From Stegostoma tigrinum (lineage: Eukaryota), in assembly GCF_030684315.1 (NCBI RefSeq), contig NC_081356.1:22655197-22719196 (forward strand): 64,000 bases of DNA. Reading direction: 5' to 3'. How positions within the stretch are numbered: the first letter of the stretch is position 1; each line of letters opens with the position of its first letter. The notes below the pieces were generated by a model that was not told where the DNA came from, searched no databases, and saw nothing but the letters and a program-made list of their open reading frames with translations. The translations under genes were made by a program, and so were the position numbers. This document shows positions 1 to 49,740 of this stretch, one piece after another.

Positions 1-430
1 CGGGCTGTTTCTTATGTTCAAACTTTTAAAAAAACAAGACTTCATAGTTGTTTATCTTCTTGGGCTGTTCACCACCTCTGCCCTAACACATCTTTTCAAA
101 ACAAAAAAAAGGATGAAATAATTTTTTAATGCCACAGTATCATCACAGTGGGTGTGTAAATAGTTTATTTTCTTTATAATTTACACTTGGAGGGAAATAT
201 GGAGTCAGTAGTTAATGTGAATTAGTCAGTAGCTTAACCAATGATATAATTAATAGTCTGAGCTAGGGACTGAGAGTAAAGCAAGGATCTATACCTGGAA
301 GAACCTCATTCTAAACAAGACGGCAGTAATGCAATAGTTTTAAAATAAATAGTTAGAAATACTTACTACGTCCAAACTGCTGATAGAGTAGAGCAGACAA
401 AGTCCACAAATCCAACAACCTACAAATCAT

Positions 431-651
431 AGTTAACAAGGTGTAGAGCTGGATGAACACAGCAGGCCAAGCTGCATCAGAGGAGCAGGAAGGCTGATGT
501 TTCGGGCCGAGACCCTTCATCAGAAATGCGGGAGGAGAAGGGGGTTCTGAAATAAATAGGGAGGGGGGCACTGTTAGAAGATGGATAAAGTAGAAGATAG
601 GTGGAAAGAAGACAGACAAGTCGAAGAGGCAGGGACGGAGCCAGTAAAGGT
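431..651 (-). mobile_element. PLE terminal-repeat (pLTR) fragment carrying a hammerhead motif, flanked by a 12-bp TSD
   Basis: Similar to the pLTR of the PLE at 40467-42142. CCTACAAATCAT is duplicated at 419-430 and 652-663. Hammerhead core at 495-523 (-). Confidence 0.8.
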
Positions 652-719
652 CCTACAAATCATGTCAAATATAAATGGAATGGATCATAGTGGCAGAAGT
701 TCCTCTTTGGTCACCCAGA

Positions 720-1410
720 ACTCAATACTATTGATATGAGAGTCCAAGAAGAGACACATTGCCTTAAAATCACTGGAAAACCACTGCCAACATTGTGCAA
801 TCACTACTAATATTGTGGAGAGAGAAACAGTGCAGATTGGGTGGCCACTTAGGGAAATACATCAATTCAATCTGCAAACATGACCCCAGACTTCCTGTCT
901 CCTGTTATTTAGATTATTGTGCCCTAGTCTCTCTTCGACCTTTCAGTCCTGGGCCTTCTACATAATCTTCATCCAACCATTCGACACCTTGTGGCCATCT
1001 GAATGCAAGAGTAAGGTCACGATCTCACATGCTTTGTCTCCTTTTCTTGTTTTGGGGATCAACGGTTAGGCCAAATTTTACTAGAATCATTTATACCTCT
1101 TCTACACTCATCTTTTAAAGGAAATAAAGAAAATAAACAAAAAACTCTTGTCATATAGCTATCTCCTTTTGATTAGAATTGTCATCCCATTTGCTATTTT
1201 ATCCTATCTGCCTTTTACCACACAAAATTCCTTCATCTTTGCTCTTTTCCCTCTCCACCATTGCAATGCCAATGTATCTGCTTTAAACTTGTTATAGGTC
1301 TCACTTTTCTAGTCCTGATAAGAGGTCACTAAAGTAAAACACTAATTGTTTCTCCCTCCATAGATGCTATATAATCTGTTGAGCACTTTCAGCATCTCCT
1401 GCTTTTGATC
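720..1410 (+). mobile_element. Old, degenerate PLE 3' region
   Basis: Pyrimidine-rich tract, then a decayed CTGATAAGAGGTCAC...AAAAC and AGATGCT...CTGTTGAGCACTTTCAGCATC, resembling the pLTR tails elsewhere in the window. Confidence 0.45.
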
Positions 1411-2926
1411 AAGTGTTTTTACAGTCTTTATACCAGAGCAGCAATGCATACAAGTAACTTTGACATTCTGTAATGTGTAAGCCACAACCCACTGAATGTC
1501 CTAGAGTTTTGCAGTATTGACACATCCCTGAAAACTATAATTACCTTTTAAAAAGTAGAAAATCGTACATTCAAAATCACCTTTGATATTAAGTGTGACA
1601 AAGGGCAATCTGTAATAAGGAGCAGCAACCTCTTGGTAGTGTTAATAAGAGACATGCAAACAAATCCAGCAAGGAAGCAGGGGTATTTCAACAAATTCAA
1701 TTAATCTGGAATCAGAAGTTATGCTCAGAATGATAACCAAAAGGTACTGCTTTGTGATAACTCCAGCTGGTTCATTAATGTCCTTTAGGGGAAGAAATCT
1801 GCCACCCTTATCTGGTCTGATCTACATGTGACTCAGTCTGCCGGTCATGTGATTGAACGCTCCTCTGAAATGACATTGTGAGCCCCCATTTGTATGCACT
1901 ACACAGAAAATTAGATCAAGAATATAACCGATGGGATGATATGGGATCTGCCTAGACACTCACACAAACCAGTCTATTATGCAATGCCTTGCATATGCAT
2001 TTACATTTTAGAAAATTCTGTCACAGATTATCTGCGTCATAGCCTCACACTCATACCCAGAGAACTATATCTTACACCAATATGCTGAACTCTTCCATGA
2101 TTATCCCTTAGTATGTTTGATTTAAAGAGAAGTTGAATACTTATTAACTATTCAATAATAGATAGAGTGGAAATGTTAACATCAGTGGAATAGTCAAGAA
2201 CCAAAATTCAAGGTGATTAGCAAAAGGAACAAGGGTGGGATGACAACATTGTTTTTTAAATGGAGTGTGCAATTACAATTCAAAATTGACTACCGGAGAA
2301 TAGAATGGACACTGTGTACAATTGAGATTTTTAAAAGGGAATTCGAAAAACACCTAAAGAGTAAAAATTCCAGGGGTCTGGAGATAGGAAACGAGTGGCA
2401 CTAGCTGAGCTGCTGAAGCAGTGAGATACCATGGGTATAATAAGACAAATGACCATCCTCTGTTTGGTCGTTGTGATTCCACAAACAGTGTGGGCCATCA
2501 TCAGAATCAAAATTATCCTCTAAAACAAACTGTGACCTAATTCCTTGCTGTATCTTACCATTAAATCTTGTGATCAACACTGTTTCAATGAGAATTGGAT
2601 GAGGTCATGGCAGAGGCACCACCAAGCAAATAATTTAATGAGATACCAGCCTAGGGAAGCAAATGGTACAGTTCTGAATTCATGCTAAACACCAGAAGTA
2701 ATATGACATAGAAAGAGCTAAGCAATCTCACAATCAATGGGTCAGATTTTGACTCATGCCATGTTGAATCATGAATGCTGATGGGGAATAATAAAAGAAT
2801 GAATGAGAAGAGGAGTGTTCCTGAAGATTCCTATACTCAGTGATGCAAAAGCCCAGGCTACAGTGTTGTAAACATCATTAGCTGTCAGTGCTCCATTTTA
2901 ACACTGTTCTGAAGTCTCCAACATCT

Positions 2927-3770
2927 TAGAACATAGAACATAGGACATAGAAAAGTACAGCACAGTACAGGCCCTTCGGCCCACGATGTTGTGCCGTAGA
3001 TTAATCCTAATCCAAAAATAAAATAATCTAACCTACATTCCCCTCAATTCACTGCTGTCCATGTGCATGCCCAGCAGTCGCTTAAATGTCACTAGTGACT
3101 CCGCTTCCACGACGACTACTGGCAAAGTATTCCATGCGCTCACAACTCTCTGGGTGAAGAACCTCTCTCTGACGTCTCCTCTATACCTTCCTCCTCCCAC
3201 CTTAAAACTATGACCCCTTGTGGCAGTCAGTCCTGCCCTGGGGAAAAGTCTCTGGCTATCAACTCTATCCATGCCTCTCATTACCTTGTACACCTTGATC
3301 AGGTCACCTCTCTTCCTCCTTCTCCCCAGAGAGAAAAGTCCGAGCTCAGTCAACCTCTCCTCGTAAGACAAGCCCTCCAGTCCAGGCAGCATACTGGTAA
3401 ACCTCCGTTGCACCCTCTCCAAAGCCTCCACATCTTTCCTATAATAGGGCGGTCAGAACTGGACACAATATTCCAAGTGTGGTCTCACCTGCTTTTTGTA
3501 GAGCTGCAGCATAACCTCGCCGCTCTTAAAATTGATCCCCCTGTTAATGAAAGCCAAAACACCATATGCTTTCTTAATAACCTTATCCACCTGGGTGGCA
3601 ACTTTGAGGGAGCTATGCACTTCAACACCAAGTTCTCACCGGTCCTCCACACTGCTGAGAATCCTACCTTTAATCCTATATTCAGCATTTAAGTTCAAAC
3701 TTCCAAAATGCATCACTTTGCATTTATCCAGGTTGAACTCCATCTGCCATTTCTCAGCCCAGCTCTTGAA
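2927..3770 (-). mobile_element. CR1/HER1-type LINE 3' fragment (ORF2 C-terminus plus 3' tail)
   Basis: ORF 3033-3431 reads LERVQRRFT...YEERL..LGLFSL.RRR.RGDLI..YK, typical of CR1 ORF2. (CATAGAA)n tail at ~2927-2951. Confidence 0.9.
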
Positions 3771-4879
3771 CATCTACTTTCAACTATTTTTGACGCATTC
3801 AACTTGAATTCTAAAAAGTGCTGCCTTCCCAATTCCCCTTGATAAAATCACAGATGGGAAGATTTGTTGGTAGGCTTCCAGAGTATTTTCGGCCACTAAG
3901 TGGACACATTCAGGTCACTTAAAGGACCTCTGCCTGCCAACTGAGGAATTCGAGCAGTGCGAGGTGGCGTTCTCTCTACATGGGCATATTGTCAGCTAAA
4001 ACTGGGCATGCATACTTGTGACTTTCGGGGGAAATTTTCTTACATTAGCCATCAAATAAGCATTGGCCAGCCATATGGGAAGACAGGTAACCTGTGGTGT
4101 AACCTGTATGCCTCTAAGTCCTTTCGATCTGTACATCCTTTGCTTGTTGTGATCTGCCTGTGCCGCTTTAAACAAAGCTTTTCACTGTATTACGGTACAC
4201 ATGACAATAAGATTAAAAAATTCAAATTACACATTCCTGCTCTTTAAACTGACCTCTCCCTGCGAACCACACCACTTTCCCAGCTTCCCTGACTGACCAC
4301 CTACCTCTTCTCCAAAGCTCAAGGTGACTCTGCTCCTAGGCCCTACTGAAATACATGCCATGACCACTGCACTGCCAATACAAGTCAGCTGCTAGCCCCT
4401 GCTTGCTTAGTGGCTCCCAGCTGCGGTATCCCTGTCCTGAAGGCACTGAGCACCCATAATGTAGAGAATGTAACATGGTCTGCCAGATGGACCTCCTAGA
4501 ATGAGTTCTGTGCTTGGACAAGATTAACAGCTCCAGTCAGGGAACCCTGGCTGACAGATAAAAACAAGAGTGTCAGACATCCTCACACACTGGGAGTTAA
4601 CTCTAATGAGGCTGTACCAGAGTTAAGGACTTTTCAGGCATAAATGAAGGATGACTTGGTAACGGGATACCAGAGTTATTTCACATGCCAACCAAGTAAA
4701 TTCTTGAAGAGCATTAAATTTGCTTGGAGAGATAGGCCATGTCTGATGGGTTGCCACTTACTCTCCGGTAAGAGGATGGGCACATCAACCTGGCCAGTAA
4801 ATTCTGCCAATAACCGATTGGTGAATACAAGCAGCAAATCCTGGTAAACCTTCATGAGTGGGTAACAACTGGGAAGTAC

Positions 4880-5435
4880 CAAAACTGGAAAGCTACTCAA
4901 GTTCCTGACAATGACAATGTCCAGAAGAAGACAATCTTACTATCTATATTTGGCACTAATGACATTATTATTACTTAATCATTAATAGAAGGTTATATTA
5001 GCAGAAACTTTAATAAACCAGCCATACAAATACTACAGCTACAAAAGAAAAATGGAGACTTGGAATCCTCCAGTAAATCTCTCATCTTTTGAAAGAGCAC
5101 AAGATTTGCACAACCTACAGGCACAATTTCGGAGTGGGATAGAACACCTTTTATTTGTCTGGATGAACACAACTCCAGTGAAACTAAAGAAAAACAATTC
5201 AGGAGAAAGCAACCAGCTGCTCAAAACATAACCAACACCTTCAACATTCAGTCCTCCACAACTGATGCACAGTGGCAGCAGTGTACTGTATACAAATTGT
5301 GCTGCACCTCACCAAAACTCTTTCAACAGTATCTTTCAAACCTATGACCTACTACTTAGATGGCTAAGTGCAGCAGTTGCATACGATAGCACCACTTACT
5401 GCCTGTACTCCAAATTACCTACCTGACTTGGAAAT
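4880..5435 (+). mobile_element. Degenerate L2/CR1-clade LINE fragment, same family as 30280-31175
   Basis: Shares blocks such as CACTGATG..CAGTGGCAGCAGTGT and CCTGACTTGGAAA with 30280-31175. Confidence 0.55.
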
Positions 5436-6079
5436 GTGTCACCATTTGGGGCTCAGGGTAAAGTCAGGGCAGTAGGAACGAGTCAGTTGGCAAGGCTGTG
5501 TCAGGAAAGAGTTTGGGGTTCAGTGGGGGAGTCAAACAGTCATGGAGGAGTTGCATGGCAACGTCAGGCCAGTCAGCTAGAGGAGTCGAAGGTTTGGTTG
5601 GGGATTAAGACTGGAGTTGTGGGGGGAAAGGGGGTGGTCAGAGTGTATGATCACAAGGTCAGTTGGGTACTTGCAAATTAGACCAGGATTTTCCATCTAA
5701 CATTTCTTGGATAATTAGCAACGTGATTGTCTCAGAGTAATAACAGGAACTTTTTTTAGAGTAGCACAGGGAAAATGCCCTTTGGGTTTTCAACACCCCA
5801 TACAGTCAGTGTATCAAAACCTGCAAGGAGTCCAGTCTCTTATCTTGGATGGTATAACAGGCCTGCAACTATGCAAAGATCAGGAGACCCTTTGTATTTC
5901 AGCTGCTATGCACTATTTTGGGGCTCAATTGTATGCCTGTAGTGAGGTAAAACACTGCCAATAGTAAAAGTATCAGTGCAGATGATTGTAGCTGTATAAA
6001 TGCAGATGTTAAAGTGAGAGGATATCTGAGAGATACAGTAAAAAAGGATGGAGAGCTATTATGGAGTATGAGTAAAATA

Positions 6080-7790
6080 AAAACAAAGAACTGCAATTGC
6101 TGCAAACCTGAAACAAAAAAATAGTGGAAATTGCTGGAAAAACTCAGCAGGTCTGGCAGCATCTGTGGAAAGACATCAGAGTTAATGTTCTGGGCCCAAT
6201 TCTGGAATTCTGGCTCAGTTTGCAGACGATACAAAGGTAGGTGGAGGGACAGGTAGTATTAAGGAGGTGGCAAGACTGCAGAAGGACTTGGGACAGGCTA
6301 GGAGAGTGGGCAAAGAAGTGGCAGATGGAGTACAATGTGGGAAAGTGTGAGGTCATGCACTTTGATAAGAAGAATAAAAGCATGGACTATTTTCTAAATG
6401 GGGAGAAAATCCAGAAGTCTGAAGTGCAAAGAGACTGAGGAGTTTCAGTCCAGGATTGTCTCAAGGTAAACTTGCAGGTTGAGTTAGTAGTCAGGAAGGC
6501 AAATGCAATGCTGGCATTTACTTTGACAGGACTTGAATATAAAAGTAGGGATGTACTACGGAGGCTCTGGTCAGGCCACATTTGGAGTACGACATGCAGT
6601 TTTGGGCGCCATATCTCAGGAAGGATGTACTGGCCCTGGGGTGGGTTCAGAGGAAGTTCACGAGAATTGTCCCAGAATGGCAAACTTAACATATGAGGAA
6701 TGTTTGAGGACTCTGGGACTGTACTCATTGAGCGGGGGTGGGTTAGGGTTAGGGGATGACTGAAACTTTCAGAATGTTGAATGGCCTGGTCAAAGTGGAT
6801 GTTGGGAGGATGCTTCCATTAGGAGGAATGCCTAGGACCCGAGGGCACAGACTTAGAGTAAAGGGAAGCCCTTTTAGAATGGAGATAAGGAGAAACTATT
6901 TCAGCCAGCGAGTGGTGAATCTATAGAATTCACTGCCACAGAAGGCTGAGGAGGCCATGTCATTGAGTACATTTACGACTGAGATAGATAGGTTCTTGAT
7001 TATCAAGGGGATCAAGGGTTACAGGGAGAAAGTGGGAGAATGGGGTTGAGGAATTTATCAGCCATGATTGAATGGCAGAGCAGACTCGGTGGGCTGAATG
7101 GCCTAATTTCAGCTCCAATGTCCTTTGGTCTTATGGTCAGCCCATGTGATGATAAGGTCTGGTATGCGGAAATTCAGACAAGAACATGGAAGGTGCTCAG
7201 GCCATAAAATTATTGAGCTCAATATTGAGACCAGAAGGCTGCAGGATCCCCAAGCAGAAAATGAGAAGCTATTCTTCCAGCTCGCGCTGCGTTTTGCTGG
7301 AACTTGGCAGCAAGCCCAAGACAGAGATGTTGGCTACAGAACAACATGTGTTGAAAGGGCAGGCAACTCGAAGTTCAGAGACTTGTTTGCTGTTGGAATG
7401 TTATTGTTCTGCTAAATGATCGTATAGTCTATGCTCCGTTTCTCCAATATAGAGGAGACAACTTTGAGCGGTGAATACAGCAGATTAGATTGAGTGAAGT
7501 GCAGATAAATCACTGCTTCACCTGGGAAGTGTGTTTGTGGCCTTGGATATTGAGGAAGGAGGAAGTAATTGGTATTATACCTTCTGCGATTGTATGTGAA
7601 AGTGCCATGGGAATGTGGGGTGTGGGGGTGGCGTAGCGTTGGAAGTGGAGGAAGACTGGACCAAAGTATCCTAGAGGGAATGCTGACCAGGGAGTTGGGT
7701 GGGTGGGGGGTGCGGTGAATGTGCATTTGGTAGTCGCATCCTACTGAAGGTGATAATGACAGCTAATGATCCTCATGAATGCACAGGAGA
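6080..7790 (-). mobile_element. Degenerate PLE (pLTR 6080-6200, GIY-YIG region 7140-7790) interrupted by a CR1
   Basis: pLTR-like GCTGGAAAAACTCAGCAGGTCTGGCAGCATCTGTG at 6132-6166. 7200-7700 resembles the GIY-YIG region of the PLE at 40900-41400. Confidence 0.65.
6215..7137 (+). mobile_element. CR1 LINE 3' fragment nested in a PLE
   Basis: TTTGCAGACGATACAAAG (FADDTK), then WAKKWQMEYNVGKCEVMHF and a CR1 3' UTR ending (TGGTCTTA)n. Confidence 0.9.
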
Positions 7791-8218
7791 GAATGATCAA
7801 ATGAATTCACAGAAGACTAGTGTCAAGTTTCAAATGACAGTTAATAAAATAACTTGGGAAGGAACCTAGAGATTGACTGGGCCAGAACTGACTCATCGCC
7901 AGTGTAATTTCTGTCCATTCAAGTTTTATGAAAAGAGCTTGGTTTGCATCTTTGACAGTGTGAGAATGACCTCATTTCAATCATGTTGTAGTTTAAGTCC
8001 AAACATAGGTTTGTACCACTTTGGCAGTGTTTGGTGGAAAAAAAATCATTAGGTACTGGCATTGCTGGGAAGGCCAGCATTTGTTGATCTTCAGTAATTA
8101 GTATTGAAGTGAGTTATTGGTAAGTTATTATAGAAGGCAGTAAAGAGTCAACCACGTTGCTGAGGATCAGACAAGGTAAAGCTGGGAGATTTTCTTTTCT
8201 AAAGGGCATTTATAAACC

Positions 8219-8347
8219 TGAAGAAGGGTCCCAACCCGAAATGTCAATCTTTCCTGCTCCTCTGTTGCTGCTTGGCCTGCTGTGTTCATCTAGATTCACA
8301 CCGTGTTATCTCAGATTCTCCAGCATTGGCAGTTCCTACTATTTCTG
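8219..8347 (+). mobile_element. Short PLE pLTR insertion starting at the hammerhead core
   Basis: CTGAAGAAGGGTCCCAACCCGAAATGTC followed by a pLTR tail. TAAACC at 8213-8218 and 8348-8353. Confidence 0.7.
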
Positions 8348-8959
8348 TAAACCCAGCAGTCTTTTTTAAGTAACAATCACTTCATGGTGACAATTACTGA
8401 GACTAGCTTTCAATTCCATATTGAGTTACTTGAATTTAAATTCGACCAGCTGTTATGGTGGGATTATGAAGCCAAGTCACGAGGGGTCACTGGTTTACTA
8501 AACTAACAACATTGTCACTACACCATCATGTCCACCGACATCCCTGGGTTGTTGGTGAGGAGCAGGATTGAACATGTATTTATACAATGATTGGATATTA
8601 ACAACACCTTGCCTGGATCATGTGGGGTCAGTCTCCATCCCACCATTGACCTACCTTCATTTCAGTCTTACCAATGGAAAGTGATCTTTAATGTTAAAAG
8701 TAACATAAATGCACAGATTTCCTCTTAGTTTATTTATTTTAAATGGTAATGAAATCATTGTATGGAAAATATTTTTAAATTTCAAATAATATAACTCAAT
8801 GCAGACTGAACCCTGAATTCTCTGTAACTGGGGCTTATGTTCATGCTTTGTAAAAGATATCCTCAGAAGGAATATATGGGAGACAAGCAAGAAGTGCACA
8901 AATAACTGGTGGGCTAGAATTGCAAAACATTTCCAAGTAGGTCCAGGTCAAGTTCTTGA

Positions 8960-9460
8960 ATATGCTGGATATTATTAAGCTGGAGAAGGCTCAGAAGAGA
9001 TTTACCAGGATGTTGCTGGGTACGGAAAGTTTGAGTTATAAAGGAAGGCTGAATAGGCTGGGACTTTTCTCACTGGAGCAAAGGAGGTTGAGAGGTGAAC
9101 TTAAAGAAGTTTATTAAATAACAAATTAAATAATGGGAGTTGTCTTTTTCCTGGGGTGGGGATTTCAAGATTAGGGGTCACATTTTTAAAATGAGAGGGT
9201 GGAGATTTTAAAAAGACATGAGGGGCATTTATCTTTTTTACACAGAGAGTAGTTTGTGTGTGGAATGAACTTCCAGAGGAAGTAGTAGATGCAGACACAA
9301 TTACAACATCTAATAGACATTTGGGTAAGTGCAGGAATAGGAAAGATTTGGAGGGATACGGCCAGGAGCAGGCAGGTGGGACTAGTTTAGTTTGGGATTA
9401 TGGTTGGCATGGACTGGTTGGACTGACAGATCTGTTTCCATGCTGTATGACTCCATATGA
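8960..9460 (+). mobile_element. CR1 LINE 3' fragment
   Basis: LEKAQKRFTRML and WNELPEEVV motifs; CR1 3' tail. Confidence 0.85.
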
Positions 9461-10524: not shown

Positions 10525-11062
10525 CAATAGACAATAGGTGCAGGAGTAGGCCATTCGTCCCTTCGAGCCAGCACCACCATTCAGTATGATCATGGCTGAT
10601 CATCCACAATCAGTATCCTGTTCCTGCCTTATCCCCGTAACCCTTGATTCCACTATCTTTAAGAGCTCTATCTATCTCTTTCTTGAAACTATCCAGAGAC
10701 TTGGCCTCCACTGCCTTCTGGGGCACAGCATTCCATATATCCACCACTCTCCGGGTGAAGAAGTTTCTCCTCAACTCTGTTCTAAATGGCCTACCTCTTA
10801 TTTTTAAACTGTGTCCTCTGGTTCTGTCAAGTTCCCTAAGCATCTTGTCTGCTTCAATAAGGCTTCCTCTCATTCTTCTATATTCCCATGAATACAGGTC
10901 CAAACTACTCAACTTTTCCTCATAAGACTGTCCCTCCATAGCTGGTATCAGCCCAGTGAACCTTCTCTGGATTTTCTCCCATGTCAGTACATACTTCCTT
11001 TGATAACGGGTCAGAAACTGTTCACAGTATTCCACCTGTGGTCTGACTGGTGCCTTGCGTAG
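10525..11062 (-). mobile_element. CR1 LINE 3' fragment
   Basis: ORF 10610-11206 includes VRPQVEYCEQF...IQRRFTGLIP...TRGHSLKIRG...FFTRRVV.WN. Confidence 0.9.
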
Positions 11063-11118
11063 GCTAAACAATGGTTTGGGAAGGAAGGGTTTGCTTGGAG
11101 AGGCAGACTTAATAATAG

Positions 11119-11254
11119 ATAACAAGGTGTAGAGTTGGTTGAACACAGCAGGCCAAGCAGCATCAGAGGAACAGGAAAGCTGACGTTTCGGGCCTAGATC
11201 CTTCATCAGAAAATAGCAGATTCTCCAGCATCTGCAGTTCCTACTATCTCAGAA
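11119..11254 (-). mobile_element. Short PLE-derived insertion with hammerhead and 10-bp TSD
   Basis: TTAATAATAG at 11109-11118 and 11255-11264. Hammerhead core at 11182-11209 (-). Confidence 0.8.
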
Positions 11255-11627: not shown

Positions 11628-12527
11628 TTATTTAAACAATTTAAGAATTAGTTTGAGTGGATATTTCACCACATTCTTGAGCTGTTCCCTGAATTTAGCC
11701 TGAGTAATTGCATAAATGCCTGTGTTTGTGCAGCAACTCAAGAGTAGTAACATGGGCCCAGTCTGTTGCGCTATGTATAGAGGGTCATTCTGGCTTGCAC
11801 TGTAATGGCTTGTAATCCGAGTATACAAGAAGAGTAGAACATGCAACATCCACAACAAGATAAATGTTCCCGATATACTGAGCAGTAATATAATGGACTT
11901 CCGGCGGTGCTCCAACTCTGGATCACTCTCATCGGCTGCTTTGTTGTGGCCCATAAGTCCTCTGCGGACTCTATTGGTCATTAAAATATGTCTGACCGTG
12001 GCAGCATTAAGCAGAAGAATCAGAAAGAATGGGGCACAAGGGGTTAATATAACATCAAACCAAGCAAATACTATCCACATGGGAGAAGTATAATAAATGG
12101 ATTTTCTGGAACAAAGCCAAGGAACACTGTTAATTGTATATTGAGATTCAAATGTAAAATACCAAGGTACGTTGTTCAAACAGCTCAGGACACTTACTGT
12201 CCCCACAACAGTCGCTGCTGTTTTTACAGTGCAGTATTTACTTTTTATGTTCTGACAACAAATAGCGATAAAACGATCAAAGGTAAATGTGACTGTTAAC
12301 CAAACAGAAGCATCTGTTGTTGATTGAAGAATTGTGCGTCTGAAAGCACAAATGGGTGTGATGTGAAGGAAAGTCAGTGGAAAATTAGACGCCATAATCT
12401 TATTTAACATCACATCAATGATAATGACCAGTAGATCTGCCACCGCCATGCCCACCAGATAGCAAGAGACACATTTCGAAAAGGCCGCATTTTCCCCCCG
12501 ACAGGACCATAATTGTCAGAAAGTTAA
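11628..12527 (-). pseudogene. GPR139-like class A GPCR, exon 2 (end of TM1 to TM7); +1 frameshift at 12479-12482
   Basis: Acceptor cctttgctaacag|TT, then (V)NFLTIMVLSGGKCGL / SKCVSCYLVGMAVADLL... with DRF and SCCTNTGIY. The exon is 900 nt in phase 1, which is one base too long for a continuous frame. Confidence 0.8.
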
Positions 12528-14539: not shown

Positions 14540-14779
14540 AAAACAAAAGAACTGTGGACGCTGTGAATCAGGAACAAAATTAAAGTTGCTGGAAAAGCTC
14601 AGCAGGTCTGGCAGCATCTGTGAAGGACAGAAAAAGGAAACGTTTCAGGTCCGGTTACACTTCCTCAGACCCTACTCGTCGGTTCTGAGGAAGGGTAACC
14701 GGACACGAAACGTTAACTTTTTTTTCCTTCACAGATGCTGCCAGACCTGCTGAGCTTTTCCAGCAACTTTAATTTTGTT
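14540..14779. mobile_element. Fold-back PLE-derived element with 55-bp perfect inverted arms and two opposed hammerhead motifs
   Basis: 14573-14627 is the exact reverse complement of 14725-14779. CTGAGGA...GAAACGTT at 14685-14714 (+) and ~14639-14668 (-). Confidence 0.85.
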
Positions 14780-22006: not shown

Positions 22007-23126
22007 AGATAATAAAGTGTGAAGCTGGATGAACACAGCAGGCCAAGCAGCATCTCAGGAGCACAAAAGCTGACATTTCAGGCCTCGACCCTTCATCAGA
22101 GAGGGAGTTGGGGCGAGGGTTCTGGAATAAATAGGGAGAGAAGGGGAGGCGGACCGAATCATTCGGGGATAAATCTTACCTCTGCAGAAAAGTTTTAGAA
22201 ATTGATAACACCGCGATTGTATTTCAATAAGTACAATAAAGATATTTGTTGAAGTTTTGTTAGCTTAAACTTTAATAAAATTCCAAGTGCATCTCATATT
22301 TAGTTGCACATTGGAAATCTTGCTGCAACCTTCGGGTGGCATCATTGTGGCACTGCAGGAGGCCCATGATGGACATGTCATCTAAAGAATGGGAGGGGGA
22401 GTTAAAATGGTTTGCGACTTGGAGGTGCAGTTGTTTATTGCGAACCGAGCAGAGGTGTTCTGCAAAGCGGTTCCCAAGCCTCCGCTTGGTTTCCCGAATG
22501 TACTGTATCCATTGTATCCGGTGTGGCTTCCTCTACATTGGGGTTGCAGGAACAGCAACTCATATTCCGCTTGGGAACCCTGCAGCCCAATGGTATCAAT
22601 GTGGACTTCACTAGCTTCAAAATCTCCCCTTCCCCCACCGCATCCCAAAACCAGCCCAGTTCGTCCCCTCCCCCCACTGCATCACACAACCAGCCCAGCT
22701 CATCCCCTCCCCCCACTGCATCCCAAAACCAGCCCAGCCTGTCTCTGCCTCCCTAACCTGGTCTTCCTCTCACCCATCCCTTCTTCCCACATCAACCCGC
22801 ACCTCCATTTCCTACCTACTAACCTCATCCCACCTCCTTGACCTGTCCATCTTCCCTGGACTGACCTATCCCCTCCCTACCTCCCCACCTATACTCTCCT
22901 CTCCACCTATCTTCTTTTCTCTGCATCTTCGGTCCGCCTCCCCCTCTCTCCCTGTTTATTCCAGTCCCCTCTCCCCATCCCCCTCTCTGATGAAGGGTCT
23001 AGGCCCGAAACGTCAGCTTTTGTGCTCCTGAGATGCTGCTGGGCCTGCTGTGTTCATCCAGCTCCACACTTTATTATCTTGGATTCTCCAGCATCTGCAG
23101 TTCCCATTATCACTGATACAATTTTA
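22007..23126. mobile_element. Rearranged PLE insertion (inverted pLTR, captured host DNA, scrambled GIY-YIG pieces, pLTR)
   Basis: pLTRs at both ends in opposite orientation. YCIHCIRCGFLYIG and RLQEQQLIFRLGTLQPNGIN fragments. Near-TSD CCTCTTTTT(A/G)TGTA at 21993-22006 and 23128-23141. Confidence 0.85.
22987..23014 (+). ncRNA. Minimal type I hammerhead ribozyme motif (PLE-associated)
   Basis: CTGATGA-A-GGGTC-TA-GGCCC-GAAA-CGTC: intact catalytic core, stem II, palindromic ACGT stem III and a GUC triplet. Confidence 0.8.
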
Positions 23127-25987
23127 ACCTCTTTTTGTGTACCTGCTCAAATATCTTTTAAATATTGTAACCGTGCTTGCATCTAATACTTCCTCTGGCA
23201 GCTCATTCCACATACAAACCACTATTAGTGTGAAAATGTTGCCCCTCAGATCCCTTCTAAATCTTTCACCTCTGACCTTAAAAATATGCCCTCCAGTTTT
23301 AAATTCCCCCACCCTAGGGAAATGATCTTTGCTACTCAGCTTATCTATGCTTCTCACAGTTTTATAAACCTCCTTATGGTCACCTTTCAGACTCTTATGC
23401 TCCAATGAAAAAAACTCTCAACCTATCCATCCTCTCCTTATAACTTAAACCCTCCAGTTCCAGCAACATCCTCGTAAAGCTTTCTGAACCTTCTCCAATT
23501 TAATAATATCCTTCCTATCACAGGGCAACTGGAACTGTACACTTTACTCCAAACGTGGCCTAACCAATGTCCTGTACAACTTCAACATAATGTCTCAACT
23601 CCTGTACTAGATGGTCCGAGCAATGAAAGCAAGCATGCTAAACACCTTCTTTATCACCCTGTCTATCTGTGAAGCAAATGTCAAAGAACAATGAACTGAA
23701 ACCCTAGGTCTCTCTGTTTGACAGCTCGACCCAGGTCCAACCATTAACTCTATAAGTCATGACCTTGTTCATTTTACCAAAATGAACTACATTGCATTTA
23801 TTCAAATTAAACTCCACCTGCCACCCCTCAACCCAATTATTCAAGATCCCTTTGTAATTTTAGAAAACCTTCTTCACTGTTGACTATGCCAACAATTTTA
23901 ATGTCATCCACAAACTTACTGACCATGCCTCTTAAATTCTCATCCAAATTGTTTATATAAATGATAAACAAAAGTGGACCCAGTACCGATCCCTGCAGAA
24001 TGCCACTGGCCACAGGTCTCCAGTTGGAAAAACAATCCCGATTGTGACCTTCTATCTCCTACCAATTTTGTATCAAATTGACAAACTCTCCCTGAATACC
24101 ATGTGATTTAACTTTACTAATCTGCCTACCATGTGGAAATTTAACAAAGACTTTACTAAAATCCATCTACTGCTCTGTCCTCATCAATATTTTCGGTTAC
24201 ATCCTCAAAAATTCACTCAAGTTTGAGAGATATGATTTCCCACACATAAAGCCACGCTGACGATCTCTCATCAGTCCTTGCGTCTCCAAATGCATTTAAA
24301 TCCTATCTCTCAGAATCCTCTCCAACGTTATATCCACTACTGATGTCAGACTCACAGGTCTGTAGTACCCGGGCTTCTCCTTACATCTTTTCTTAAATAA
24401 AGTCATAACATTAGCCACCCTCCACTCCTCCAGCATCTTACTTGTGGTTGTAGGTAATAGAAATATCTCTGTTAGGAGCCCTGCTATTTCTTCCCTAACT
24501 TCCTACAACATTCTGGGATATACCTGATCAGATCCTGGAGGTTTATCCACCTTTATGTTTTCTTCAGACCTCCAACACTTCCCCCTCTGTAACGTAGACT
24601 TTTTTAAGACATTGCTGTCGATTCCCCTGAGGTATCCCTAGCCTCCACTTTTCTCCACAGTAAAAACACTTACGTGAAACATTCATTTACTATCTCTCCT
24701 ATCTCGTGTGGTTCCAAACATAGGCAATTTTGTTGATCTCCTTTTCTCTCCTTAGTTGCTTTTTGCCCTTACTGTACTTGTAGAATTCTTTGGATTATTC
24801 TTAACCTTATCTGCCAATGCTATCTCATAATTTCCTTTTTGTCCATTTGATTTACCTCTTAAGAATGCACCTACACCTCTTGTACTCTTCAAGAGATTCA
24901 CTTGATCCCCATTGTCTATACCTAATACACAACTCCTTCTTATTCTTGACCAGAGCTTCAGCATCTTTATTCATCCAGTGTTCCCTACTCTTACCAGCCT
25001 TACCTTTCACTCTAACCGGTACATAATGCTTCTGAACTCTTTTTATCTCACTTTTGAAAGCCTCCGACTTGCCAAACATCCCTTTACTCCTACTTTAATC
25101 AACTTTGAAAGTTCCTGTCTCAAAACATCAAAATTTGCCTTACTCCAATTAAGATATTTAACTTTTATACAAGGCTTATTCTTTTCCATAACTATTTTAA
25201 AACTAATGGAATTATGATCACTGGCACAAAAGTGATGCCCCACTAACATTTCAATCATTTGCCCTGTGTTACTTACCAAGAGAAGGCCAGGTTTTGCTCC
25301 TTCAATCCCCCTGTTTTTTTGTGTCCCTCACATAATTCAAACTGAAAGTAACCTCATCCACTGTCCAAACAGTTAATGACGAAGTTTGTGTTTTCCTCTG
25401 CTAACAGCAGAGTAAAATTTGATCTAATTATAATTTACTTTAGCTATTTTCTCTCAGTGACCTGCAAAACAGACAAGCTCTTAAGTACAGATAAAAGAAA
25501 TCCAGGTTTAAATAAAAATAGAAAGCCTTCCTAATGTCTATCCATCTCCATCTTGATGGAGCCTTCTGTAAAAATATCCTCAAATGATTAGATCAATTAT
25601 CCCTCATTTACAGTTTCTTCTTTGAACCGATGAAGTAAATGAGTTTTACAACCTTTCAAGGCATATTGAAAGTTTTTAAAACTAATTTGGCTCTAAATGC
25701 AAATACAAAAACATTTTCCTACACTGCTCTTGTTCTTGGCAAGCACTGAAGGCATTATATCTCCAGCTTTTATAACTACATAAGGTTTTATAGATTTTCT
25801 CTCACAAACTGTTAACCTTACAAAGGTTGACGATATGTCGCCTTAAGCTTGATGGATCCAAGTTTGTATTAGTTGTTTTTATTCCATTTTAAAACTTTAA
25901 TGCCCAAAATTAGCAAATATTTTTGAATCTTAATGTGTACTCTGAATGAGATATGCATGGAATAGAATCCCAGTAAGTAATTAAGTA

Positions 25988-26119
25988 TCAGAGATAATGG
26001 GAACTGCAGATGCAGGAGAATCCAAGACAACAAAATGTGAGGCTGGATGAACACAGCAGGCCAAGCAGCATCTCAGGAGCACAAAAGCTGACGTTTCGGG
26101 CCTAGACCCTTCATCAGAG
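25988..26119 (-). mobile_element. PLE pLTR fragment with intact hammerhead (26090-26117) inserted into a SINE; 12-bp TSD
   Basis: AGTAATTAAGTA at 25976-25987 and 26120-26131. Confidence 0.85.
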
Positions 26120-26131
26120 AGTAATTAAGTA

Positions 26132-26296
26132 CGACCAATTCACCTAACCTGCATGTCTGTGGACTGTAAAGGGACATCCACACAGACACAGGGAGAATGT
26201 ACAAACTCCACACACAGTCACCCAAGGCTGGAATCAAACCTGGGCCCCTAGCGCTGTGAGGCAGCAGCACTAACCACTGAGCCACCATGTTGCCCC
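26132..26296 (-). mobile_element. HE1-type tRNA-derived SINE
   Basis: Minus strand GGTGGCTCAGTGGTTAGTGCTGCTGCCTCACAGCGCTAGGGGCCCAGGTTTGATTCC (A and B boxes). Confidence 0.85.
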
Positions 26297-26717: not shown

Positions 26718-26904
26718 TGTAACAAAGTATGAAGCTGAATGAACACAGCAGGCCAAGCAGCATCTCAGGAGCACAAAAGCTGACTTTTCGGGCCTAGACC
26801 CTTCAGCTTTTGTGCTCCTGAGATGCTGCTTGGCCTGCTGTGTTCATCCAGCTCCACACTTTGCTATCTTGGATTCTCCAGCATCTGCAGTTCCCATTAT
26901 CGCT
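26718..26904. mobile_element. Fold-back PLE-derived insertion with 13-bp TSD
   Basis: CTTTACAGCCAAT at 26705-26717 and 26905-26917. Inverted arms ~26721-26782 and ~26804-26866. Confidence 0.85.
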
Positions 26905-29715: not shown

Positions 29716-29877
29716 GTTGTAATTTATTATGTTTTTAAGTTTCTATTCCTGTATTTGAAATAAGTATTGAAGATATTGCAGGAACCATAGACCAACTAAT
29801 GTAATGTCAGTAGTAGGCAAGATAAAGAAATATTAATGGATGTGAGTTTGCTCGCTGAGCTGGAAGGTTAGTTTTCA

Positions 29878-29911
29878 GACGTTTCGTCACCATTCTAGGT
29901 AACATCATCAG
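29878..29911 (-). ncRNA. Minimal hammerhead ribozyme of a second family, inside an 87-bp TSD-flanked insert (29838-29924)
   Basis: Minus strand TCA-CTGATGA-T-GTTACC-TAGAAT-GGTGAC-GAAA-CGTC-TGA. Stem I TCA/TGA and a 6-bp stem II. Confidence 0.8.
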
Positions 29912-30279
29912 TGAGCCTCCGACGAAGAAATATTAATCTCAGACCGGCAGAGCATATAAAAAAATACAAACTTAAAACTAAGTGACAGGAAACACACAGT
30001 AATGGTTACTGAATGTTTCTCAGACTATGTGAGGGTTTGCAATATAGTTCCCCATGCTTTACAGTACGCATTGGGAAAAGACAGTCTGTAGGAGTATTCT
30101 CGATCAGAGTTTTCCCTAAAGTTTTCCCTTTGTATAATGGGACAAGACCGGCTAGAAAGGCTAGAAGTAAAAATAATGAGCAATAATAGCTCGTGGAAAT
30201 GATTTTCTTTCCGATGAGATGATACTACAGGGTACAACTAGTCAAAAATGATGAGTCAAAGAAGTCTTTGTAAAAGTTT

Positions 30280-33335: not shown

Positions 33336-33613
33336 TCTGTCAGAGTAATTGCAAAAGTGAGGATTACTATTTATGATTTCTCCTTCACAGATGCTGTTAG
33401 ACCTGCTGAGCTTTTCCAGCAACTTTGTTTTTATTACTATTTATGAACCACATATACACTTTCAGCTCTTGTATTACAGTGTCATGTATAGCATAACTTT
33501 AATTTTAGCAGTTATTCCACCAGGGCTATCTACTTTCATGTTTGTAGGCTATAGCATAAGTTTCTTCAGCCTAGTGTCTGACATGATAGGACACTGCATT
33601 ATGATCCCAGCTG

Positions 33614-40311: not shown

Positions 40312-40566
40312 GTAAGAATGTTCTCCTTTGCCCGCTTAGTCTTGATCCTTTTGAAGTCTATTATAATCTCACTAAGATCGATTTCAAGCAGAAGGAATGA
40401 AACTATTACTGAATAAACAAGACATATGCAAGCTATAACTTATAATTGCGTATTGCTGTGGGTGTGAGTGATAATGGGAACAGCAGATGCTGGAGAATCC
40501 AAGATAATAAAATGTGCGGCTGGATGAACACAGCAGGCCAAGCAGCATCTCAGGAGCACAAAAGCT

Positions 40567-40594
40567 GACGTTTCGGGCCTAGACCCTTCATCAG
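40567..40594 (-). ncRNA. Minimal hammerhead ribozyme motif in the PLE pLTR
   Basis: Reverse complement reads CTGATGAAGGGTCTAGGCCCGAAACGTC. Confidence 0.8.
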
Positions 40595-42050
40595 AGAGGG
40601 GGATGGGGAGAGGGAACTGGAATAAATAGGGAGAGAGGGGGTGGTGGACCGAAGATGGAGAGACAAGAAGATAGGTGGGGAGGGGATAGGTCAGTCCAGG
40701 GAATACGGACAGGTCAAGGAGGCGGGATGAGGTGGTAGGTGGGAAATGGAGGTGCAGCTTGACGTGGGAGGAAGGGTTGGGTGAGAGGAAGAACAGGTTA
40801 GGGAAGCGGAGACAGGCTGGGCTGGTTTTGGGATGCAGTGGGCGAGGGGAAGAACTGGGCTGGTTTCAGGATGCGGTGGGGGTAGGGGAGATTTTGAAGC
40901 TTGTGAAGTCCACATTGATACCATTGGGCTGCAGGGTTCCCAAGCGGAATATGAGTTGCTGTTCTTGCAACCTTCGGGTGGCATCATTGTGGCACTGCCA
41001 GAGGCCCATGATGGACATGTCGTCTGAGGAATGGGAGGGGGAGTTAAAATGGTTCGCGACTAGGAGGGGCAGTTGTTTCTTGCGAACCGCGCGAAGGTGT
41101 TCTGCAAAGTGGTCCCCAAGCCTCCGCTTGGTTACCCCAATGTAGAGGAAGCCACACCGGGTACAATGGATACAATATACCACATTGGCAGATGTGCAGG
41201 TGAACATCTGCTTGATATGGAAGGTCATCTTGGGGCCTGGGATAGGGGTGAGGGAGGAGGTGCGGGGGCAAGTGTAGCACTTCCTGCGGTTGCAGGGGAA
41301 GGTGCCGGGTGTGGTGGGGTTGGAGGGGAGTGTGGAGCGGAAAAGGGAGTCAGAGAGAGAGTGGTCTCTCCGGAAGGCAAATAAGGGTCGGGATGGAAAA
41401 ATGGCTTGGATGGTGGGCTCGGATAGTAGATGGCGGAAGTGTCGGAGGATGATGCATTGTATCTGGAGGTTGGTGGGGTGGTATATGAGAATGAGGGGGA
41501 TCCTCTGGGGGCGGTTGTGGCGGGGGCGGGGTGTGAGGGATGTGTTGTGGGAGACGCGGTCAACGGCATTCTCGACCACTGCGGGGGGTAAGTTGCGGTC
41601 CTTGAAGAATGTGGACATCTGGGATGTGCGGGATTGAAATGCCTCATCCTGGGAGCAGATGCGGCGGAGGCAGAGGAGTTGGGAATAGGGGATGGAATTT
41701 TTGCAGGAGGGTGGGTGGGAGGAGGTGTATTCTATGTAGCTGTGGGAGTCGGTGGGCTTGAAATGGACATCATTTCTAGCTGGTTGACTGAGAGGTCCAG
41801 GAAGGTGAGGGATGTGTTTGAGATGGCCCAGGTGAACTTGAGGTTGGGGTGGAAGGTGTTGGTGAAGTGGGGTGAGCTGTTTGAGCTCCTCTGGGGAGCA
41901 AGAGGTGGCGCCGATACAGTCATCAATGTAACGGAGGAAGAGCTGCGGTTTGGGGCCTGTGTAGGTCTACCTATCTTGTATTCTCTCCATCTTCGGACCG
42001 CCTCCCCCTCTCTCCCTATTTATTCCAGTTCCCTCTCCCCATCCCCCTCC

Positions 42051-42078
42051 CTGATGAAGGGTCTAGGCCCGAAACGTC
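42051..42078 (+). ncRNA. Minimal hammerhead ribozyme motif, sense to the PLIN2 pre-mRNA
   Basis: CTGATGAAGGGTCTAGGCCCGAAACGTC. Confidence 0.8.
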
Positions 42079-42365
42079 AGCTTTTGTGCTCCTGAGATGC
42101 TGCTTGGCCTGCTGTGTTCATCCAGCTCCACACTTTGTTATCTTGCTGTGGGTGTGGTCAGGTTGTAGTGTTCACTAAATATTTGTATTTGGCATGAGTC
42201 AGAAAGTGTCAACAAATGCCATCAGTTTCAGTATCGAACCACTTCTCTACAGGAAGATGCTTTAAGCTCCTGCCCTTTTGCCTATTTGTGGAGTGGCGAC
42301 TTGATGAATTGCACTTCTATTTTACCTTTCACCTAGTTCAGATGTATAAATAAACCAGGCTAATA

Positions 42366-42568
42366 AATTGTTAGAGATAGTGGTAGTTGCCGATGCTGGA
42401 GAATTTGAGATAACATGGTGTGAAGCTGAATGAACACAGCAGGCCAGGCAGCATGAGAGGAGCAGGAAAATTTACTGAAGAAGGGTCCTGGCCTGAAACG
42501 TCTAGCTTTCCTGCTCCTCTGATGCTTCTTGGCTTGCTGTATTCATCCAGCTTCACACCATGTTATCT
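42366..42568. mobile_element. Fold-back PLE-derived insertion with a sense hammerhead (42475-42502) and 10-bp TSD
   Basis: CAGGCTAATA at 42356-42365 and 42569-42578. Inverted arms. CTGAAGAAGGGTCCTGGCCTGAAACGTC. Confidence 0.8.
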
Positions 42569-42777: not shown

Positions 42778-43071
42778 AGATTAGATTCCCTACAGCGTGG
42801 GAACAGGCCCTTTTGGCCCAACAAGTCCGCACGGCCCTTCGAAGCATCCCACCCAGACCCATTCCCCTATAACCCACGCACCCCTGAACACTATGAGCAA
42901 TTTTGCATGGCTAATCCACCTAGCCTGCACATCTTTGGACTGTGGGAGGAGACCCACGCAGACATGGGGAGAATGTGCAAATTCCACGCACAGTCAACCG
43001 AGGCTGGAATCAAACCTGGGTCCCTGGAGCTGTGAGGCTGCAGTGCTAACCATTGAGCCACTGTGCCACCC
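42778..43071 (-). mobile_element. HE1-type tRNA-derived SINE
   Basis: Head GGGTGGCACAGTGGCTCAATGGTTAGCACTGC...GGTTTGATTCC; LINE-like tail GGGCCTGTTCCCACGCTGTAGGGAATCTAATC. Confidence 0.88.
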
Positions 43072-45198: not shown

Positions 45199-45410
45199 AA
45201 TCTTAAGGCTGGACCACCAAAAACTGGGGTCCCAAGAAACTGAGAATTGCAGGGAGCAGGTGGAAAAGTGCAGTTAAGATCAGTGATCGGACAAGATTTT
45301 GTATTAATTGACCAAATGAGCTCAAGCAGCTTAATGATTTATTTATTGTATTACATTATCAAATTTTGAATAGTTCCAAGTTCTGAGTGCTGTGGCCTTT
45401 TTTTTGACAG

Positions 45411-47431: not shown

Positions 47432-47566
47432 ATAGAGTATGCCAGGGAAAATATGGGTACAGCAAATAAAAAAATCCATGATGCCCAGGATAAGCTATAT
47501 CATACATGGATAGAATGGAGGAAGTCTAACTTAGAACATGAAGACCATGAATCTTGTGCAGCAGAG
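47432..47566 (+). CDS. PLIN2: Perilipin-2 coding exon 6
   Basis: ccag|IEYARENMGTANKKIHDAQDKLYHTWIEWRKS...ESCAAE|gtgag; 135 nt. Confidence 0.97.
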
Positions 47567-47609
47567 GTGAGTGTGCATCATGATAGGCTCTTGTAAGTTA
47601 TTGATCCAA

Positions 47610-47912
47610 AGTCAGTCATAGTCATAAAGGTCTACAGTAGAGAAAAAGGCCCTTTTGGCCCATCAAACCTGCACCAGTCAAAACAAAATTTAAGTATTCT
47701 AATGCCATTTTCCAGCACTTGGCCCATAGCCTTGTATGTTTTGGCATTGCAAGTGTACATCAATATCTTTCTTAAATGTTATGCAGGTTTCTGCCCCTAC
47801 CACCCCTTTTATAGACAGTAAGTTCCAGTTTCCCAATACCCTCTGGATGAAAAAAGACATCCTCGCATCCCTTCTTGACCTTCTGCTCCTTAACTTTAAA
47901 TCAAGTCCCCTT
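47610..47912 (-). mobile_element. CR1 3' tail fragment
   Basis: FFIQRVLGNWN...FKKDIDVHL; (AGTCAT)n tail. Confidence 0.8.
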
Positions 47913-48741
47913 GCTGTACAATAACAGCTTTGGCTTGTGGCATTTTTTAATCTATGTCTGTGTGTATCCAACAAAAAACTGTCTGGCATTTGTATGACAT
48001 AACCTTTTTCTTTGCACTAAAAGCACTGAAAGATACAAGATCAAGAAGGAAAAGGCAGCTAATTTATCAAGTCTTTCCACTCCTGATGGAAGAATGTATC
48101 TGGACATATCTTGCTACTTCTTTTGTAGTGATGTCATTTGAAAATAGCTCAAAACCTGAGCACCAAGAGGAGCAAAATACTTCAGGAAAATTCCTGTCTA
48201 ATGTTCTTGGGAGGTTGAAACTGGGCTAGGAGATTGCATGGATTAAATGTTCTGGGACACTCTTTTTTTTATTGTTTTGCTTTCAGTAATCACAATTACA
48301 TGAATGACGAATTGCACCAACTACACATCAGCTGGTGACCAAATTCCAGAGGTTTATTAGTCTGTCTGAAATATAATCGCTCCCATCCTGTCTGTCCCTA
48401 TTCTTGCATAGGTTAAACTTATCTCCTTCTCTATTCATTTAATGAACTGGACTAAACTATTGCTTGGGACAGTATCCACTTCTTAAATTTATATACCATC
48501 ATCTGGCCTTCTCCTAAGTCTATACTGTGTAGTGAGTAGACAAATGCCCTTTTGAACCTGATGTTCTTTAACTGGGAATTATTATCATGATTCTTCTCTG
48601 GACCTCTTGCAAGACCAATTCTCACCTAAGAGGTGAAGAAGCAGGGATGTGTCGTTAAGAGACAGAATGTGTGCAGAGTACAGAAATCCATGAGAAAAAT
48701 CTGTTCTGTTCAAATATGTCTTTTTTTTATTTTATATATAG

Positions 48742-49071
48742 CAGGCTGAATCACGTACACTGGCCATTGCTTGGAATCTGAGCCAACAATTGCAGACAAC
48801 CTGCTTTGTGCTCGTAAGCAGTGTTTGGGGTTTACCTCAGAATGTTCAAGAACAGGTCCAGTACATAAATCTTCTGGCAAGAGAGATGTATTCCACTTTT
48901 AAGTCTAAAACATCATTCAGAGAACTGTCTAGCCAAATCCTCTCCACAAGTAAGGATCAGCTCACAAAAATGAAGGACTCACTGGATGGCCTGATGGATT
49001 ATTTGGTGAATAACACACCTCTGAATTGGCTGGTGGGTCCTTTCTACCCACAACTAACTGGGTCCCAATAG
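48742..49071 (+). CDS. PLIN2: Perilipin-2 last coding exon (4-helix bundle)
   Basis: tag|[10 protein letters not shown]...[33 protein letters not shown]. Total CDS 1224 nt = 407 aa. AATAAA signals near 49214 and 49517. Confidence 0.96.
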
Positions 49072-49648
49072 GAAGGGGAGACTGAGACCATGGGAAAGAT
49101 GTCATCTGAGCAGGTGCGTACTTGTGATGCTTGACCATTATTTGTTATAGCATCTGTTTCTGTTTAACCACCTTCTTGCCACAGAAGTTCCCTTTTCTGA
49201 TGGAAGAAGATAAAATAAAAATCAAGATTTGACACTTCCTTTGAAATTGGTTTCATTTCATATGTATTTAATAAATCTCTGGGCAACCATGGCTTCAACT
49301 GCTAATCCTTTACATCAGTTGGCTCTTCCTGAAATGATTAGTTTTGAGGTTTTACTGCTGCAAGCTTTAACATTTGCAGGTTCATGGATGAAGATGGATT
49401 ATGGTGTTTCAAGTCCTTTAGTAATTGCTGTTGATTAGTCTGATCTCTTGTGCTGTCTCTCCATGAGATGCTCAGCCACTACATAGTTTTTTGCAACTAT
49501 ATGAAGGAATTTATACAATAAAAGAGTAACAGCCAATGTGTTGTCTGTTTGGAATTTCATTATCAGTACCCTATAGCCATTAAAAAGGCCCTATCACCGT
49601 TCCATGAAATTGTACAATAACACATTTTGACAGCCAGTTGCTAGAAAC

Positions 49649-49740
49649 AAGGGTCTAGACCTGAAATGTAAACTTTCCTGCTCTTCTGATGCTGCTTGAC
49701 CTGTGTTCATCCAGCTCTACACCTTAGCTCAGATTCTCAA
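49649..49740 (+). mobile_element. Short PLE pLTR remnant (truncated hammerhead) just downstream of PLIN2
   Basis: AAGGGTCTAGACCTGAAATGT...CTGATGCTGCTTGACCTGTGTTCATCCAGCT. Confidence 0.65.

Follow-up and report, generated by a model that had tools for sequence, protein, structure and literature searches.

Short hammerhead-bearing insertions of Stegostoma tigrinum as probable end pieces of Neptune-type Penelope-like elements

Minimal hammerhead ribozymes recur along the 64,000-nucleotide stretch of Stegostoma tigrinum DNA analysed here (NC_081356.1, positions 22,655,197 to 22,719,196; hereafter the window), largely in short insertions flanked by target-site duplications (TSDs). What are these units, and how did they arise? 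An initial annotation took them for a discrete family, resembling retrozymes or short interspersed nuclear elements (SINEs), mobilised by Neptune-like Penelope-like elements (PLEs). Such a family was not borne out, since all short units align to the end of the PLE itself and junctions vary from copy to copy. Judging from sequence comparison, the units are probably end pieces of Neptune-type PLEs, made by priming on both strands of the cut target and by run-off of the complementary DNA (cDNA) at the 5' end of the RNA. Their end points likely mark a capped RNA start and the predicted ribozyme cut site. The copies are by-products, not a self-propagating family.

Where the arms begin and end

At least three hammerhead families had been claimed. 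The window holds A1, A2, B and C, and a fifth family, D, turned up in a sample of the 3.2-Gb genome (123 ten-kb loci at round coordinates, of which 2 lie beside the window and 1 is all N). Positions in an arm are counted from the predicted cut, 0 being the first base past it (GUC or GUU); C3 of the family A core is then at -28, and +64 and +100 give the bases retained past the cut.

The 3' ends were collected from 151 loci and the window (302 family A arms, 68 adjacent inverted pairs). They were bimodal, at about +64 or about +100, and 67 of the 68 inverted pairs had one end of each kind (40/40 in the young subset; p = 2e-19). The corresponding counts were 16/21 in family B and 23/27 in A2, which overlaps the A set. 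This one-tail rule also held in long inserts, up to 3.2 kb. The TSDs of the pairs were mostly 13-16 bp. Arm lengths were coupled within pairs, both being short in 47/67, both long in 15/67 and mixed in 5/67; the length difference within a pair reached 1.3 kb and could favour either arm. TSDs of their own flank single arms that end at +64, which indicated that +64 is a priming site.

Inverted insertions of the pseudo-long terminal repeat (pLTR) are known from endonuclease-bearing (EN+) PLEs, with a 30-40 bp tail on one side, 'often' at one end, ascribed to endonuclease resolution or self-priming in the parts of the reports available to us (PMC8557442, PMC3846280). The insertions described here share with them the head-to-head inverted copy, the tail at one end, the TSD, the C-terminal GIY-YIG domain and the CX2-5CxxC linker. 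In contrast to those reports, the literature's 'often' becomes a near rule here (67/68), and the commonest product lacks an open reading frame (ORF). The two fixed 3' ends also match, by analogy, a system studied in vitro, PAc, a Poseidon PLE of Anolis carolinensis (Frangieh et al. 2024, PMC11167929). In PAc, the tail lies between two internal start sites for reverse transcriptase (RT), both downstream of the hammerhead. Cutting and extension take place on both strands, a dimer is predicted, uncut RNA is the main template and the ORF start lies after the tail region. PAc belongs to a different PLE clade; two internal starts, both-strand extension and an uncut main template are what we propose for the elements here as well. 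That study saw no strand difference in start site, and coupling within one event lay outside it.

The 5' ends piled up as well. For 124 young arms, taken from the random loci and from the window, the number of starts per base was 0.11 at -100 to -37, 2.8 at -36 to -28 and 1.6 at -27 to -17, then 0.15 at -16 to -4, 0.86 at -3 to +3 and 0.5 at +4 to +25. Nested exact counts over the genome gave the same region: the 31-nt family A1 core had 89,060 matches (0 for the reversed control), and 68,235, 57,981 and 52,661 remained on extension to -32, -34 and -38, a loss per added base of 6.4%, 7.8% and 2.4%, respectively. About 22,000 of the 89,060 exact cores therefore begin between -28 and -34. In A1, A2 and B, 4 nt separate the 5' boundary from the core downstream of it; the spacing is about 16 nt in C and about 6 nt in D. 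The boundary falls at initiator-like motifs, either C-rich and TCT-like or A-start and Inr-like. An internal promoter with an initiator inside the pLTR has been described for Drosophila virilis Penelope (PMC2377424).

A capped RNA start may leave an extra base. We listed arms that begin at -32 behind a non-templated base, itself preceded by G or T. Among the 100 matches listed of 2,493, 77 had G as the non-templated base, 14 had T and 9 had A, as compared with G 14, A 12 and C 74 at the control start -16 (100 listed of 204; G versus A, p = 1.8e-4). In L1 and SVA, an extra 5' G without a template is interpreted as a copy of the cap (PMC4859970). A splice acceptor at -32 was rejected, since the template reads CC there and the G excess persists with G or T at -34.

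A second class of arms begins at the predicted cut. Exactly at 0 we counted 2,753 arms, versus 191 at -5, a control that also opens with a 4-nt palindrome; the control pattern is 4 bases longer with a CpG, which we estimate to account for about a third of its loss, not for a 14-fold one. Per 100 matches listed, 20 pairs formed perfect palindromes centred at the cut versus 5 at the -5 control. Of the 37 non-AA rows at the cut, 16 had a G in front, fewer than at -32 (p = 4e-4); such a lack of G excess would be expected of an uncapped end. The cut-site class holds at most 17 of the 124 young arms; the core-keeping arms are copied from uncut or re-joined RNA.

Source element, ribozyme and multimers

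The Neptune-like partner proposed initially was supported by a CX4CxxC linker and a GIY-YIG domain with two internal cysteines. A full-length relative at locus L119 comprises, in order, tail, 5' untranslated region (UTR), 1,077-aa ORF, 3' UTR, hammerhead and tail. Its translation reads DKG, CX4CxxC and, C-terminally, GIY-YIG with two cysteines; Pfam gave RVT_1 (E 0.0015) and GIY-YIG (E 0.0039), both under Pfam's cut-off. A CX2-5CxxC linker before the endonuclease is the mark of Neptune/Nematis (PMC8557442). The partner is thus assigned by its linker motif to EN+ PLEs of the Neptune/Nematis type, Neptune and Nematis not being separated. The other parts of the EN+ architecture were also found, namely, a pLTR with hammerhead, an optional tail, an inverted 5' copy and a TSD. 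A protein search with the PLE frame of the window scored the best 112 of 319,884 candidates, most of them about 80% identical to it, several with open frames of 800-1,089 aa. Those PLE copies that were compared with one another were 96-99% identical, which points to recent activity of family A1. We also considered an intron in the 5' UTR and rejected it, the 350 bases before the L119 ORF being single-copy DNA without splice ends.

The cores agree with the minimal PLE hammerheads that had been claimed. CUGANGA, GAAA, UH, the bulged base and G10.1-C11.1 are kept, by eye, in all five families, while stems I and II and the stem III palindrome vary and remain paired, also by eye; this constancy of the core with covarying stems points to selection in the source elements. 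Stem III is loopless, ACGU in A1, A2, B and C and AGCU in D. Stem I has 4 bp in B, 3 in C, 3-4 in D and 2 in A1 and A2, the usual length being 4-5; in D. virilis Penelope, stem I is likewise reported to have 2 bp (PMC4209133). The predicted lowest-energy folds of A1, B and C differ from the hammerhead. In 2017, Lunse et al. reportedly described dimer cleavage of PLE hammerheads.

The initial annotation had also suggested comparing decay in core and flanks. Non-CpG core positions of genomic copies diverged less (1.11%, 14/1,259, versus 1.98%, 239/12,089; p = 0.03), a weak comparison on a set filtered by identity and mixing subfamilies. Yet CpGs within the core decay by about 12% and 30 of 99 cores are damaged, and overall the inserted copies look near neutral, decaying almost like their flanks.

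Two kinds of longer copy were found. ORF-bearing long copies L119:4849-4913 and L140:1501 begin at the tail, which is doubled in L119; in the virilis group, 34-bp direct repeats flank solo Penelope ORFs (PMC2377424), which resembles this doubled start. These tail-first copies fit one full turn on a circular or tandem RNA. The second kind is an array of 297-448 bp head-to-tail units, in which the ORF start (+204 to +299) is joined to the 3' UTR (-94 to -151), with a hammerhead per unit:

L074:6750-8434; L094:4982-6183; L141:1501-2427; L142:882-2150: internally deleted PLE multimers.

Such arrays are rare: 2 were present in 122 readable random 10-kb loci, and L141 and L142 came from a targeted search. 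Each of the four has its own deletion junction. Three of them, L074, L094 and L142, are inverted insertions flanked by TSDs; each has both kinds of end and a single junction common to its two arms; these features make them look multimeric at insertion. The TSD-flanked multimers thus look like rolling-circle or concatemer copies made at insertion. In three of the four, the ORF-side break is at +204 to +215, possibly the limit of the RNA that is bound by protein.

Having a hammerhead per unit and deriving from a PLE end, the four arrays resemble non-long-terminal-repeat retrozymes (PMC7229834; bioRxiv 10.64898/2026.07.22.740005). Under the definition in the accessible part of the preprint they are retrozymes, whereas the window units are not: head-to-tail arrays were not found in the window, where units occur as monomers or as inverted pairs and carry minimal hammerheads. 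The preprint suggests that arrays were amplified locally at a later stage; in contrast, three arrays here look multimeric at insertion.

Two further arrangements were noticed. At G000:C2:58043049-58044747, nine head-to-tail matches with a 208-base period and the junction of a palindrome centred at -5 form a tandem array of a PLE stub. Family C arms L036:610, L053:8685 and L129:540 begin inside stem II after a common sequence ending AATAAAG...TTTTTCAAATAAAAAAA, and may therefore be fused to another repeat. An amplified ribozyme family in which the inverted arm supplies a long stem I was rejected as a family, since junctions vary.

The window and the genome-wide population

All 12 CUGANGA...GAAA cores listed for the window were located. 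A strict descriptor (stem II of at least 3 bp, pairable GAAA-NN, UH) was satisfied by 8 of them, while 50 dinucleotide shuffles gave a mean of 0.04 and a maximum of 1; the other four (523, 11209, 14668 and 14685) carry a mutation. A search of the window against Rfam matched no hammerhead family up to E 10, the best matches being microRNA (miRNA) models on palindromes, below gathering score. The 12 motifs reduce to 9 insertions because 14668 and 14685, 22099 and 22987, and 40594 and 42051 are each the two arms of one inverted insertion. TSDs of 10-14 bp, with one of 6 bp, had been reported; seven of the nine insertions have one (6, 12, 13, 14, 14, 14 and 15 bp), and none was found for 523 or 14540-14779. 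A length of 87-240 bp had been given for most inserts, and two measure 1.1 and 1.7 kb. The 1.7-kb insertion at 40467-42142 was also taken for an autonomous-type relative. This proved wrong, as its frame begins late in the RT domain, versus a 1,077-aa ORF in the full element. The PLE-derived features are as follows.

431..563, minus: family A2 arm with tail-less 3' end, core 495-523 with mutated stem III; no TSD found; homology may extend to 604.
6088..6189, minus: family B remnant without core; no TSD found.
8219..8347, plus: family A2 single arm with tail, beginning at the core; 6-bp TSD.
11119..11249, inverted: family A2 pair, minus arm -29 to +65 with core, plus arm of tail only; 15-bp TSD, 1 mismatch.
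14540..14779, inverted: family B palindrome with back-to-back cores, 14668 minus with tail and 14685 plus without; no TSD found.
22007..23127, inverted: family A1 long pair, cores 22099 (tail-less arm) and 22987 (tail arm), with about 165 unrelated bases inside at 22159-22323; 14-bp TSD, 1 mismatch.
25988..26119, minus: family A1 single arm running from -32, the inferred RNA start, to +100, type example of a complete run-off unit; 12-bp TSD.
26721..26904, inverted: family A1 pair absent from the earlier list, tail arm beginning at -2 (predicted cut), tail-less arm at -24; 16-bp TSD, 1 mismatch.
29838..29924, minus: family C single arm beginning about 16 nt 5' of the core; 13-bp TSD.
33377..33432, plus: family B arm without core; 14-bp TSD.
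40467..42142, inverted: 5'-truncated minus-strand PLE with tail (core 40594) and inverted tail-less arm (core 42051), not autonomous; 14-bp TSD.
40866..41966, minus: partial PLE frame with RT end, CX4CxxC linker and GIY-YIG with two internal cysteines; no Pfam match alone; about 80% identical to many genomic copies.
42370..42568, inverted: family A2 pair, tail-less arm with core 42475, tail arm beginning just past the predicted cut; 14-bp TSD, 1 mismatch.
49646..49738, plus: degenerate family A2 arm; no TSD found.
53215..53304, minus: family B remnant; no TSD found.

Other features of the window include a 295-aa single-exon frame at 11628-12515 (minus) that matches the rhodopsin-family G protein-coupled receptor model 7tm_1 (E 1.9e-16), with a family A2 insert about 380 bases downstream. 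Decayed long interspersed nuclear element (LINE) fragments, presumably of CR1/L2 type, lie at 58689-59498 (minus; RVT_1, E 1.6e-6), 3033-3452 (minus) and 10610-11100 (minus), and tRNA-like SINE copies, which we take to be of V-SINE/HE1 type, at 26130-26290 (minus), 42895-42943 and 54852-54896.

How general is this? In the first 103 sampled loci (1.02 Mb) we found 79 strict motifs, versus 3 in one shuffle, which extrapolates to about 238,000 intact cores per genome, in agreement with the very large population predicted initially. The claimed density of one per 5 kb stood for family A arms with or without core (240 in 1.22 Mb), not for strict intact cores (one per 13 kb). The same 1.22 Mb held 99 arms of B, 21 of C and 16 of D, and all arms together extrapolate to about one million per genome.

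In other metazoans, minimal type I PLE hammerheads are mostly single dispersed motifs with some close opposite-strand pairs, ascribed to truncated PLEs (Cervera and de la Pena 2014, PMC4209133). Our motifs share with them the core, the bulged base before G10.1 and the loopless palindromic stem III. They differ in the 2-bp stem I of A1 and in number, about 240,000 by extrapolation versus some 2,000-9,000 per genome, with 9,000 in Xenopus. The fixed 5' ends seen here are not described in the parts of PMC4209133 available to us.

Mechanism, rivals and significance

The proposed sequence of events is as follows. Transcription would begin at an initiator just 5' of the hammerhead, which places the ribozyme at the capped 5' end. 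RT would have two internal start sites downstream of the ribozyme, each serving one of the nicked strands. On a linear monomeric RNA, no more than 96 and 132 nt separate these priming sites from the cap, so that the cDNAs would run off, gain an extra base copied from the cap and become joined head to head. Some RNAs would already have been cut by the ribozyme, giving arms that begin at the cut without the extra G. Long copies and multimers would require an RNA that is circular, tandem or read-through. In L1, priming takes place at the poly(A) end, and the two segments do not overlap; here, both primers would be internal and 36 nt apart, and the arms overlap. The likeness to L1 twin priming lies in the inversion by two priming events and in the extra 5' G read as cap copying (PMC4859970).

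Several observations speak against this mechanism. The start at -30, planned as a negative control, was also G-rich (G 52, A 10 and C 38 in the 100 matches listed of 2,008); we read it as a second start site, an interpretation made after the fact. The G tallies were made by eye on the first 100 matches listed of one chromosome. The lowest-energy predicted fold of A1 is a non-hammerhead hairpin whose base is at most 2 nt from the cut, so an RT stall could mimic the cut-site pile-up; locally, starts at +2 to +9 are as frequent as at 0, and stem I of A1 has only 2 bp. Pairs were called only with arms at most 40 bases apart, interrupted pairs being excluded. The four loci examined that have an ORF start (L119, L140, L141 and L142) begin at the tail or in deleted arrays, and not at -32. 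Finally, the anole study saw no RNA reads ending at the cut site (PMC11167929).

Part of this evidence raises another possibility, which we consider unlikely: the 5' pile-ups would reflect stalling of RT, either at structured RNA or at the C-rich tract that precedes the core, and the extra G would be a cap-independent terminal addition. The hairpin predicted from -28 to +1 puts both pile-ups near its ends, and the G excess occurs at two positions. Yet there is no G excess at -16 or at the cut, starts are scarcest just inside stem II (0.15 per base at -16 to -4), and the offset from the core depends on the family (4, 6 or 16 nt), B, C and D having no long C tract. As for the inverted arms, they could have arisen not by two primings but by fold-back self-priming of one cDNA or from an antisense template, as proposed for rotifer PLEs (PMC3846280). 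In favour of this, both arms often end at the same place and at short palindromes. We nonetheless hold it to be quite unlikely, since single +64 arms with their own TSDs make +64 a priming site, length differences of up to 1.3 kb occur in favour of either arm, and the anole protein extends both strands from two sites (PMC11167929).

The discrete non-autonomous family, a SINE, a miniature inverted-repeat transposable element (MITE) or a retrozyme, itself transcribed and re-copied by the PLE, would account for the very high copy number, the narrow size class near 230 bp, the recurrence of certain junction types and the tandem arrays with a hammerhead per unit; moreover, a 200-bp window palindrome retrieved full-length look-alikes in 40/40 candidates scored. 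However, junctions vary among those look-alikes and among the 40 young pairs, the units contain PLE sequence only, and each of the four arrays has a separate deletion junction. A SINE or MITE would be one fixed unit with a common junction, copied as such; instead, short inserts and long ones of up to 3.2 kb follow one rule. We regard this family as very improbable. Random truncation, which the initial annotation had set as its alternative, does not fit either, the ends being fixed at a few sites that resemble RNA ends and priming sites. Run-off from two internal priming sites on PLE RNA is the reading that we retain.

A wider reading can be offered tentatively, and it could well prove wrong. 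The roughly one million arms would record the whole PLE reverse-transcription cycle: a hammerhead at the capped RNA start that cuts in vivo, and one dimer that, on a single RNA, always uses the two internal start sites, one for each strand. From linear RNA, only short run-off stubs could result; productive copies and retrozyme multimers would need a circular or tandem template, and retrozymes would be multimers from the outset, through rolling-circle copying during insertion.

Minimal hammerheads, inverted pLTRs, the tail and internal priming were already known in PLEs. Run-off stubs as the commonest product, the cap-like G, the strict pairing of start sites and the cut-site junction pile-up were not found for PLEs in the literature covered, subscription journals, Repbase and Dfam lying outside the search; the supplements of PMC4209133 and of the 2026 preprint may list shark families.

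The density of intact motifs, about 240,000 in 3.2 Gb, tops the counts in the published sources as far as these were accessible, 9,000 minimal motifs in Xenopus and up to 120,000 canonical ones in axolotl. Palindromic stubs are also prone to mislabelling as MITEs or miRNA precursors, and Rfam gave such matches here. How inverted and tailed PLE insertions form, and whether weak hammerheads cut in vivo, are questions that the literature, in its accessible parts, states as open. The copies yield exact, countable predictions for them: where the RNA starts, that two priming sites are coupled, that one base derives from the cap and that a class of arms begins at the cut. All of these are checkable in the existing in vitro system.

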